A stretch of 59,113 bases of DNA from Limisphaerales bacterium (GCA_003134375.1 PLAY01000151.1:1-59113), one strand, 5' to 3'. Counted from the stretch's first letter, positions 35,563 through 50,375 are shown. The notes: generated from the letters alone by a model not told the origin. A program made the numbers and translations.

Positions 35563-35647
35563 GCGCATATGGTGGAATTGGCAGACACGCTACTTTGAGG
35601 TGGTAGTGCCGAAAGGTGTGCAGGTTCAAGTCCTGCTATGCGCACCA
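35563..35647 (+). tRNA. tRNA-Leu (GAG)
   Basis: GCGCATA/TATGCGC acceptor stem, anticodon loop TTGAGGT, long variable arm, GTTCAAGTC T-loop, CCA. Confidence 0.98.
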
Positions 35648-35727
35648 ATTTTCCTCAAGAAATTGAGGTTTCTGGTGTTCCTGACACAGTTCTGACACAA
35701 GAAACGGCTGAATCCGAAAGCGCGAAA

Positions 35728-42565: not shown

Positions 42566-42958
42566 TCATTGGTAAAGACTTTCAGCGTTGACGAAAAAAT
42601 AAGAGCCGTTAGGTAGTTTTTTGGCCCACTGAATTTTGTTGTCCTCATCCGGGTTTGGTCGCGCTTCCAAAATATACTCATCGTGATGCCACCAGTGATC
42701 CCGCGTAACATGCAATCTCGTTGCGTCTCCCTCCATTATTTCGACATCCTTACGATTCTCGCTGCAAGATGAATAGCCCACCGCACACAACGCCGCAAAA
42801 AGCAGCCAAGAAACAACCCTCCTGAGCGAAGCCCCTTCCTCCACTTTGCTCAGCGTATTTCTTAATACGTGGTTTTCAAACTCGATTTGCTTTGTCCACT
42901 CTTCTACTGAAAACGCAGTTTCGCGCGGACGCCCATCCGGTGGATTGTTTGAAATCAT
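42566..42958 (-). CDS. Small membrane or lipoprotein-like hypothetical protein
   Basis: Start at MISNNPP; coiled segment then hydrophobic helix. Confidence 0.65.
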   Translation of the reverse strand: MISNNPPDGRPRETAFSVEEWTKQIEFENHVLRNTLSKVEEGASLRRVVSWLLFAALCAVGYSSCSENRKDVEIMEGDATRLHVTRDHWWHHDEYILEARPNPDEDNKIQWAKKLPNGSYFFVNAESLYQ

Positions 42959-43006
42959 AAAATTTATGCTGGTTGGAAAATCTCTTTGAGCGAAACACGG
43001 ATCTAC

Positions 43007-43034
43007 AAAAAAGGGGCGCGAACTTAACGCGCCC
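43007..43034 (-). terminator. Rho-independent terminator upstream of 42566-42958
   Basis: GGGCGCG-TTAAGTT-CGCGCCC followed by CTTTTTT on the minus strand. Confidence 0.8.
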
Positions 43035-43447
43035 TCGTCTGCGGCACCGCGAAGCGCCTTGGAGAGAAACACGAAAAGCCGCGCCCGGTCGGGCGCGCGC
43101 TTGGTCGGTTCTCTCCACAAAATTCGCGGTTTTCAGACGAGACCGTAGCCGAGCTACGCAAAATTATTTTGGTAAATGGTTTTCTGTTTTTTTGATTTTC
43201 TTGTCGCAGCGAGTTTAGAGCGGTCTGCGCCGCATGACAATTCCCGTTTTGGATTGCTACCCGGCCGCAATGGTGTGAGATTGCCCCCGACCGCGCCCGT
43301 AACTAACACCGTCCGCACCGCTGACGAACTCAGCGCCGAACGCCAAAGAGGGCGAGTCCTGGGAAATCCAGGTATGACGGCGGAAGCGGGTTCAAATCCC
43401 GCTCTCGGCGCGGTTCTAATTTCAGGCGACTCGATGCACCGGCAACG

Positions 43448-43645
43448 ATGAAAACCAACTACCTCAAAACTGGCGCGCGCCGCCGCCGCAAAACTTTTGC
43501 TGACGGTAGCCATGTGATCGTGAGTAGCAGCGGCTACGAAATCTTTGAGGGCATCCCAAAATTCAAAAAGGCCAAGCTGAAACCGCGCGCCAAGCGCAAG
43601 TCACCGTCATCTTCGCAAAGCAATTCTCCGGGCGCAGAATCATAG
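43448..43645 (+). CDS. Small basic hypothetical protein
   Basis: 65 aa, Lys/Arg-rich; the 3' end runs into repeat copy C. Confidence 0.35.
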   Translation: MKTNYLKTGARRRRKTFADGSHVIVSSSGYEIFEGIPKFKKAKLKPRAKRKSPSSSQSNSPGAES

Positions 43646-43732
43646 AGGCAAAATCCCGGAAGCCGGGGATAGTTGGGCGAGCGAGGGGTGCCAGCCCTCT
43701 GGCGTGAACGAATGAAGCCCATCTCCGACGCT

Positions 43733-47335: not shown

Positions 47336-47433
47336 GCAGATTGGCAGCCATCGTAAGCCGCAGCAAATTTAAGGCAATCGAAAACAGATACCGCTCCGCG
47401 TCAGCCAACCAGCCTATTCCTGTCGTGATGATT

Positions 47434-47595
47434 TCTCCGTGTGCAGAATCATAGAGGCAAAATCCCCGGAGCCGGGCGGCGGGTGCAATGTGGAGCACAG
47501 CCGGATGAGGCGAGCAATACATTGACGCGCCGACCGGCGACACATAATCGGCCTCTGATTCACGCGCACGGCTCCAACGCAGATGCGTCACGATT
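47434..47595. repeat. Structured non-coding repeat, copy D
   Basis: Reverse complement of copy A (3966-4098); also shares about 25 extra bp with copy B. Confidence 0.9.
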
Positions 47596-50137: not shown

Positions 50138-50264
50138 GTCTTTTTCTACTGCTAGTTGCTCACAGATGCCAGAAAATGCTTGCAATCAAACGGCAATGCC
50201 GTAGTATCACTAGCAGGCCAGTATGAAGAAAGGCAATTATGAGCAATGACGAAAACACCCTGTT

Positions 50265-50301
50265 TGCAGGTTCAAGTCCTGCTATGCGCACCAATTTTCC
50301 T
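50265..50301 (+). repeat. attR core of element 2
   Basis: 37-bp exact duplicate of 35619-35655. Confidence 0.95.
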
Positions 50302-50375
50302 GAGAAAATCGGGCAATCTCAGGAAATTTGCACAGAGTTTGCACAAAATGTTGCCCGTCCTTCGGACAGACGTGT

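Follow-up and report, generated by a model that had tools for sequence, protein, structure and literature searches.

A structured RNA family with a proposed tRNA/tmRNA-like stack on mobile islands of peat-soil Verrucomicrobia

The window analysed here (59,113 nt) is one whole contig, PLAY01000151.1:1-59113, of a Limisphaerales bacterium known from a 4.16-Mb metagenome-assembled genome in 201 contigs (GCA_003134375.1). At 43290-43414 on the plus strand it carries a member of a new family of structured non-coding RNA (ncRNA) that has a probable tRNA/tmRNA-like stack and is neither a tRNA nor the scar of an attachment (att) site; its function we infer. That the element is conserved and structured, and neither a tRNA nor an att relic, we state with high confidence. 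The fuller statement, that it is a separate small RNA gene of ~125 nt, carried on mobile islands and acting in trans, is one toward which we lean slightly. The parts of the RNA are the following.

43290-43414, plus strand: whole structured unit, P1 to P1′, ~125 nt, from the covariance model (CM), RNAalifold, pair counts and minimum free energy (MFE) folding
43290-43296, plus strand: 5′ strand of P1, ACCGCGC, pairing with 43408-43414; 96.4% paired, 3 compensatory pairs
43297-43308, plus strand: J1/2, single-stranded, consensus CCGNAACNNNNA, here CCCGTAACTAAC-A; invariant or near-invariant columns
43309-43313, plus strand: 5′ strand of P2, CCGTC, pairing with GACGG at 43376-43380 and enclosing P3-P5; 98.3% paired
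43319-43335, plus strand: P3 hairpin, (C)GCTGA-CGAAC-TCAGC(G); 5 compensatory pairs
43341-43354, plus strand: P4 hairpin, CGCC-AAAGAG-GGCG; 3 of 3 pairs compensatory (GTC/GAC, GGGG/CCCC, GCGG/CCGC)
43358-43372, plus strand: P5 hairpin, CCTGG-GAAAT-CCAGG; 15 nt here, 22-39 nt in other members
43376-43380, plus strand: 3′ strand of P2, GACGG, followed by a conserved CGGA(A/G)
43385-43403, plus strand: P6 T-loop hairpin, AGCGGG-TTCAAAT-CCCGCT; 5 compensatory pairs
43408-43414, plus strand: 3′ strand of P1, GCGCGGT

Homologues were collected at the DNA level and then by structure. The stretch is single-copy in its own genome. BLAST of 43150-43660 against 163 genomes of the same genus gave partial matches in several, and pattern scans added two further metagenome variants. 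A CM was built from a MAFFT/RNAalifold alignment of ten sequences; the unit in the window scores 141 bits with it. Copies are cited below by our working labels for genomes (G), contigs (C) and loci (L).

The fold is supported by covariation throughout. RNAalifold recovers P1-P6 on a plain MAFFT alignment of 10 homologues, with compensatory change in 17 of 36 pairs. In the 12 full-length members standard pairs make up 92.5% of cells, and 23 of the 36 pairs are changed on both sides; none of 500 column shuffles of these members attained any of the observed pairing measures, and pairing falls to 35-54% when the 3′ partners are shifted by 1-3 columns. Distant members fold alone into the same architecture. 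For the 128-nt unit of the window the MFE structure is the consensus (-56.5 kcal/mol, z = -3.3). By itself the window sequence folds equally well on either strand; across homologues G.U cells outnumber A.C cells 31 to 10, and the plus strand is therefore favoured.

Individual helices keep their place and exchange their sequence. P1 closes the ends with 7-8 bp, its 3′ strand GGCGCGG having a perfect partner ~110 nt upstream in every copy read. It is ACCGCGCC/GGCGCGGT in the window, GCCGCGCC/GGCGCGGC in most copies, GGTCGCGC/GCGCGACC in L106, GCTGGG/CCCGGC in L003 and GGTGCGGT, with two G.U pairs, in L005; GCCGCGC/GCGCGGC also occurs. The 12-nt strand J1/2 is retained in the distant members L114 and L122. 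P2 is mostly CCGTC/GACGG and becomes TCGTG/CACGG (L003), CCAGC/GCTGG (L122) and CCGGG/CCCGG (L114) in the three most distant copies, which on these readings makes it the most telling helix for covariation. P3 varies in length (17, 20, 21, 23, 29 or 31 nt), and P4 keeps a purine loop (AAAGAG, GAAGAG or AAAAAG). In P6 the two loop-closing G-C pairs are invariant and the stem covaries; the loop is TTCAAAT, TTTAAAT, TGCAAAT or TGAGATT, with U1 and A5 kept in all 12 copies. This hairpin has the 5-bp stem, the 7-nt loop and the U54/A58 equivalents that mark a tRNA T-loop hairpin.

An earlier note, made from the window sequence, had described a 76-nt tRNA-like cloverleaf at 43335-43410. On inspection its named stems (GCCGA/TCGGC, D-like arm, anticodon-like arm, T-arm) are all where it put them. 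The ‘acceptor’ can be extended to 7 bp, GCGCCGA (43333-43339) with TCGGCGC (43405-43411), and the cloverleaf is the fold of a 96-nt stretch taken in isolation (-41.7 kcal/mol, z = -2.9 against dinucleotide shuffles). Alignment of homologues, which the note had proposed as a check, upholds part of this picture: pairing is conserved with compensatory changes in the 12 members, and the D-like, anticodon-like and T arms are P4, P5 and P6, though the closing helix is a different one. The proximal acceptor (43335-43339 with 43405-43409) is paired in 61.5% of cells across homologues and is a full helix in the window only; most homologues have A.C and A.G in place of its pairs 3 and 4, and in the window its 5′ strand is changed from GCAACGA to GCGCCGA. 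This 5′ strand overlaps the 3′ strand of P3, and the acceptor 3′ strand overlaps that of P1, whose kept partner is 43290-43296. The conserved unit is thus ~125 nt (43290-43414) rather than 76.

Could the cloverleaf closed by GCGCCGA/TCGGCGC nevertheless be the functional form, a true tRNA mimic? It folds well in isolation, as noted, and has a weak tRNA-Sec-like score of 17 bits. Yet its acceptor is complete in this one copy, ARAGORN and Rfam are negative, full-length MFE folding prefers P1 and P2 over the proximal acceptor, the anticodon-position loop has 5 nt, there is no CCA, and 2 nt intervene between T stem and acceptor. We regard this form as highly improbable. What looks like a convincing cloverleaf in one sequence can thus arise by local accident, here through two substitutions, on top of a different conserved fold. 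The note's wider suggestion of a regulatory RNA or tRNA mimic fares better, in that there is a conserved structured RNA with a promoter and a T-loop hairpin adjoining the end-closing helix; its cloverleaf is not the conserved fold.

Known RNA classes were considered in turn. ARAGORN makes no call at the RNA, the only tRNAs of the window being a tRNA-Tyr and two tRNA-Leu, and Rfam 15 at gathering score reports those three tRNAs and nothing at the RNA. Relaxing Rfam to E<=10 over 42950-43700 gave chance-level hits only, the best being tRNA-Sec at 17.1 bits (E = 1.8) against a gathering score of 47; none of the Rfam 15 families, C4, YrlA, int-alpA and riboswitches included, is matched. The RNA thus adds a well-supported, uncatalogued structured family with no Rfam match, from an uncultured soil phylum. 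A literature search found nothing relevant to this RNA.

A tRNA is rejected on several grounds. No conserved 7-bp acceptor is continuous with the T stem; the loop GAAAT, replaced by a long hairpin in homologues, has no U33; and the 3′ flank is GGTTCT, where host tRNAs encode CCA. The judgement already made in the earlier note, that this is not a normal tRNA (no CCA, no D-loop GG, an ‘anticodon’ loop of just 5 nt), stands. With tRNA (RF00005) and tRNA-Sec (RF01852) the RNA shares a T-loop hairpin with GGTTCAAATCC beside a closing helix, and D-like and anticodon-like hairpins. It differs in that the conserved closing helix lies ~45 nt further upstream, in having an extra helix (P2) and an extra hairpin (P3), in the anticodon-position element (a 5-nt loop or a 22-39-nt hairpin arm) and in lacking CCA. 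A hammerhead-like core (CUGA...GAAA) was rejected by inspection, the order of elements not fitting.

The resemblance to the tRNA-like domain of tmRNA is closer in layout: a 7-bp closing helix, a strand of ~12 nt, P2, a short linker, the T-arm and the closing 3′ strand follow one another in both. The T-arm GCGGGTTCAAATCCCGC is one base off the T-arm of the genome's own tmRNA, and CCTGG/CCAGG occurs in both RNAs. In contrast to tmRNA, the RNA has no 3′ CCA, no G3.U70 and no stop-ended tag open reading frame (ORF), measures 125 nt against ~350 nt, leaves 4-5 nt between T stem and closing helix, and has a T-stem sequence that is not conserved among its homologues; Rfam tmRNA models give no hit to it even at E<=10. 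A tmRNA is accordingly rejected (no hit, third P1 pair C-G, no CCA, no stop in frame 0 in 10 of 12 copies), and the real tmRNA of the genome is on another contig. That gene (G000 C88:1-351, minus strand) abuts the contig end, which commonly points to an assembly broken by an island or repeat at ssrA.

The earlier note had offered, as a second reading, a decayed tRNA-Leu-like att site at an internal element boundary, and had looked to an exact match with a host tRNA 3′ end to favour it. None was found by BLAST against the 41 tRNAs and the tmRNA of the genome: matches are of at most 17 nt and no 3′ end is matched through the acceptor. The tmRNA matches comprise 16 of 17 nt in the T-arm plus the 10-nt CCTGGGAAAT, and a few tRNAs give 11-nt T-loop matches. 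The island's actual att repeats lie elsewhere. It is 14.6 kb long and bounded by 48-nt direct repeats (35616-35663 and 50262-50309, 92% identical) consisting of the 3′ end of tRNA-Leu(GAG) plus flank, so that attL and attR stand ~7 kb to either side of the RNA; no direct repeat surrounds the L129 copy. An att relic is therefore rejected as a candidate, having neither a near-exact host 3′-end match nor a place at an element-boundary direct repeat. In its favour as a rival, namely the decayed 3′ half of a tRNA or tmRNA that a past integration left behind, are the tmRNA matches just given, the L023 copy (described below), which keeps only the 3′ part from the P4 loop onward next to unrelated upstream DNA, and the position of several copies near a junction of chromosomal and mobile genes. 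Compensatory changes extend over all six helices, however; a fold that evolves in this manner is under selection and not decaying, and we find the relic reading scarcely credible.

The following signals lie outside P1.

43254-43282, plus strand: sigma70-like promoter read from the sequence, -35 TTGCTA (43254-43259), 17-nt spacer, TG-extended -10 TGTGAGATT (43274-43282)
43415-43427, plus strand: U-rich tail TCTAATTTCAGGC directly after P1, U-rich in ~8 of 12 copies
43212-43240, minus strand: divergent sigma70-like promoter TTGTCA-17-TAAACT, called by the promoter scan, outside the RNA

Eleven of the 12 members have TTGACA, TTGACC or TTGCCA 35-42 nt before P1, then a 17-nt spacer; L007 has a weak -35 only. 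The -10 hexamer is GAGATT, GATAGT, GAGTGT or GAAAAC, mostly after TG, and P1 begins 6-14 nt later (7 nt in the window and the main group). This promoter is kept despite unrelated upstream DNA in L106, L114, L122 and L022, and at L106 (TTGACA-17-GATAGT) the promoter scan calls it. Downstream, the tail reads ATTTAATTTC, ATTTTCTTTC, TCTTTTTTCTT or CACTTTTCC in other examples and is partial in L007 (GAATTTC); L005, L106 and L114 have no U run after P1. It is possibly the 3′ end or a weak terminator. Taken together these features describe a self-contained gene, with a predicted transcript that would start and end at P1.

The -35 sits in a conserved inverted repeat (43254-43270 in the window), TTGC..GCAA here and TTGCC-N7-GGCAA in homologues. 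As a candidate operator it could possibly bind a dimeric repressor.

The same surroundings bear on a different idea, that the fold is a cis-acting 5′ leader, riboswitch-like or coupling translation, for the 65-amino acid (aa) ORF that follows in the window, for a giant ORF in G008 or for a primase operon in G427. An ORF on the same strand does begin within ~350 nt downstream in 6 of 12 copies. In the window and L006 the stop that ends frame 0 (counted from the first P1 base) shares bases with the start codon of the small ORF (ATGA), and in L102 and L003 frame 0 continues in frame into that ORF; the conserved junction nucleotides resemble an aptamer core, and the U-rich tract comes directly after P1. 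But in L128, L131, L132 and apparently L130 the gene that follows is read from the other strand, the small ORF occurs without the RNA in G138 (L004), the downstream genes are mutually unrelated, and no alternative terminator/antiterminator pairing was found. We think a leader quite unlikely.

A folded single-stranded DNA signal, a priming or recombination site in island replication or transfer comparable to a single-strand origin, we think very unlikely. The pairing is strand-specific, G.T being tolerated on one strand; a strand-specific hairpin repeat of the island is ~200 nt away, and an AT-rich stretch (43160-43205) adjoins. Against it, 11 of 12 copies have a conventional double-strand promoter placed exactly at P1; the T-loop geometry and the conserved strands at the junction are features of RNA, and no relaxase or Rep gene was recognized nearby.

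The lengths of the RNA are harder to accommodate. All 12 members are divisible by 3 (alignment A4). Indels confined to single hairpins measure -3, +3, +9, +12, +24, -3 and -3, and in L005 a +1 before P3 is offset by a -1 in the T stem, which makes about nine independent frame-preserving events, ~3^-9 by chance. Across the RNA, frame 0 has no stop in 10 of 12 copies and is interrupted by one in the other two, and stops mostly close the five remaining frames. At the P5/P2 junction 11 of 12 copies have an ATG or GTG in frame (43374-43376 in the window). The peptide itself looks neutral, because the substitutions lack codon periodicity (mean column entropy 0.55, 0.62 and 0.58 for codon positions 1, 2 and 3); tblastn similarity is no better than that at the DNA level and is alike on both strands. 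In most copies there is a stop 15-17 codons upstream and no start before P1. Two protein readings of the region were rejected: the forward ORF 43176-43451, which has no codon periodicity and whose upstream frame is not conserved, and the antisense ORF 43154-43513, closed by stops in most homologues.

One copy is an in-frame guest. In G008 the RNA, with promoter-like sequence, lies in frame within a 1786-aa ORF (G008:C117:31857-37214), at residues ~417-468, and no target-site duplication flanks it. Homologues of the N- and C-terminal parts of this ORF occur in other giant ORFs that have no RNA. The ORF (L126 8752-14109; L135) has N-terminal LSD(D/E)EFG repeats and follows eight co-directional genes of unknown function; it has no Pfam or PHROG match, and partial homologues are found in ORFs of 434 to 2079 aa in G032, G054, G153 and G157. 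L106 shares coding sequence with the region just downstream of the G008 copy.

These data invite comparison with Rickettsia palindromic elements (RPE), selfish in-frame inserts that can reside within protein-coding genes. Shared features are a size of ~130-160 nt, strong folding, a length divisible by 3, one stop-free frame, and occurrence both between genes and inside an ORF. The RNA differs in its copy number (1-3 against tens), in its own predicted promoter and in a multi-helix junction with a T-loop instead of a simple palindrome. A frame-preserving selfish cassette, in which promoter and fold make up a small insertion element like RPE serving its own propagation or expression, would account for the lengths (12 of 12 divisible by 3, frame 0 open in 10 of 12) and for the G008 copy, a neutral peptide inserted where related giant ORFs have none. 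Against it, the genome of the window has one copy and others at most three, G008 shows no target-site duplication, most island copies have no start before P1, so that the frame is not needed, two copies have in-frame stops, and the fold is a complex junction. We judge it unlikely. A variant that we think rather unlikely is a cassette of promoter and RNA in which selection acts on the fold as RNA, and in which the DNA is also kept frame-preserving and stop-free as an in-frame guest in giant ORFs of mobile elements; if true, it would unite a T-loop ncRNA with a selfish insert of the RPE kind, a pairing not described before. A multiple-of-3 pattern without protein-type conservation is in any case unusual and, if upheld, points to RNA genes that tolerate translation through them.

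The proposal of a separate, trans-acting small RNA gene must be set against several results that weigh on the other side. A simple trans-acting RNA does not explain the multiple-of-3 indels and the open frame 0. Because the peptide is not conserved, the constraint looks like ‘must tolerate read-through’, and this we cannot reconcile with the copies on islands, which seem to have no translated sequence upstream. The promoter scan misses the window site, its -10 (GAGATT) being too weak; the 3′ end is not a canonical terminator, and the terminator scan does not call the U-rich tail. Comparison of flanking ORFs gave no conserved protein partner near the RNA copies, and complementarity to possible targets in the window is at chance (15 ten-mers against 13 expected). 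As to the fold, pair counts on the CM-fitted alignment lean towards the model, with which the MAFFT/RNAalifold result agrees, and an extension at the base of P6 (CGG/UCG, pairs 194-196) is poorly conserved.

How such an RNA might work is suggested by its shape. P1 and P6 could stack in the manner of acceptor and T-arm, and the T-loop would then dock on another loop, for which the P4 purine loop is the obvious candidate. The product would most likely be a compact, nuclease-resistant body working through a protein, and the RNA probably acts in trans for the element as a stable RNA that binds protein. It could regulate the maintenance or replication region of the element, or it could serve a host factor with an affinity for the tRNA shape as decoy or scaffold. 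The first of these, a trans-acting regulator of element immunity or replication, we put forward tentatively as a possibility; the second, a tRNA/tmRNA-shape mimic that binds a host factor, is a slightly more doubtful one. The tRNA/tmRNA-like stack with its T-loop suggests interaction with machinery that recognizes the tRNA shape. Either way the RNA could be a handle on self-regulation of the island or on interference with the host, in islands integrating at tRNA genes whose own genes are almost all of unknown function.

Small RNAs of other mobile elements and of bacteria may offer partial precedents. P4 CI RNA and the c4 RNA of P1/P7, processed immunity RNAs of satellites and phage-plasmids, are likewise small structured RNAs on integrated mobile elements, and CI precedes the alpha primase operon of P4 much as the G427 RNA lies between a repressor-type helix-turn-helix (HTH) gene and a primase operon. 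They differ in that our RNA has no repeated complementary targets, no Rfam C4 hit, a far more complex fold, and its own predicted promoter rather than processing from a leader. YrlA, a bacterial Y-RNA-like RNA with a tRNA-mimicking module, is a stable ncRNA with paired ends and a T-arm-like hairpin, sometimes encoded on mobile elements or phages; the RNA described here has neither rsr/Ro60 nor rtcB among the neighbours seen, gives no match in Rfam and has no D-arm with GG.

The family is rare, patchy and horizontally moving, and is found on integrated mobile islands of peat-soil Verrucomicrobia. A CM search of 151 genomes of the genus gave matches at E<=0.01 in 9, of which 7 are convincing; carriers other than the genome of the window have 1-3 copies, G045 having 3 and G010 2. 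G427, from another family of the same order, has one clear CM match (61 bits). Nothing convincing was found by CM search in 150 other genomes of the phylum, and a refined model (R2) added no members in 150 genus genomes and 150 order genomes. Phage and plasmid records gave no match to the RNA. Among IMG/VR viral contigs a T-arm pattern gave none, and a J1/2-P2 pattern gave two matches, both inside ordinary coding sequence and without a CM match. A GTDB-wide pattern scan returned mainly genuine tRNA-Ser and tRNA-Leu genes, and the Verrucomicrobia copies already known. A truncated copy in G045 (G045:C18:4247-4350; L023 1995-2098, minus strand) lacks everything before the P4 loop and keeps 75-80 nt at the 3′ side. 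The DNA that precedes it is unrelated, its T stem has a G.A mismatch and its contig is just 4.7 kb long; it is probably a decaying copy.

Gene context varies, the genes on either side being for the most part unrelated from one copy to another. Several copies are found at a transition from genes of chromosomal type to those of mobile or defence type (Fic, HsdM, HTH_17, integrase), and several are convergent with the next gene. In G427 (L127, G427:C4 6088-13464, minus strand) the order is an XRE/Cro-type HTH gene, two ORFs of unknown function, the RNA, ORFs of 311 and 124 aa, a DnaG-type primase (CHC2 zinc finger plus Toprim) and a 403-aa ORF, with the RNA co-oriented. The most distant copy of the RNA thus has a setting like that of a replication module, reminiscent of a place in immunity or replication control. 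The XRE/Cro-type HTH protein was considered as a conserved partner (G012, G427, G095) and rejected, since it also occurs without the RNA: a 51%-identical HTH protein stands beside the RNA in G012 and without it in G095.

Within the island, a block at 42985-43667 is common to the window and L102, a metagenome contig, at 74% identity. It holds a rod-shaped leader, the divergent promoters, the RNA, the 65-aa basic ORF and a copy of the island hairpin repeat. The ORF (43448-43645, plus strand; MKTNYLKTGARRRRKTFADGSH...) has 64-81% aa identity in L003, L004, L006 and L102 and no Pfam or PHROG hit; its 3′ end overlaps the hairpin repeat copy (43624-43667, matching 47433-47476). The minus-strand promoter is back to back with that of the RNA and would transcribe the rod-shaped leader (43142-43005), which has two terminator-like hairpins (43097-43080 and 43034-43014) and heads towards a small lipoprotein-like ORF. 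A motif CGC(C)NCAYGACAT lies upstream of the RNA in the main group (43230-43242 in the window, within the divergent promoter); in L122 and L114 a similar motif is instead 25-45 nt downstream of the RNA.

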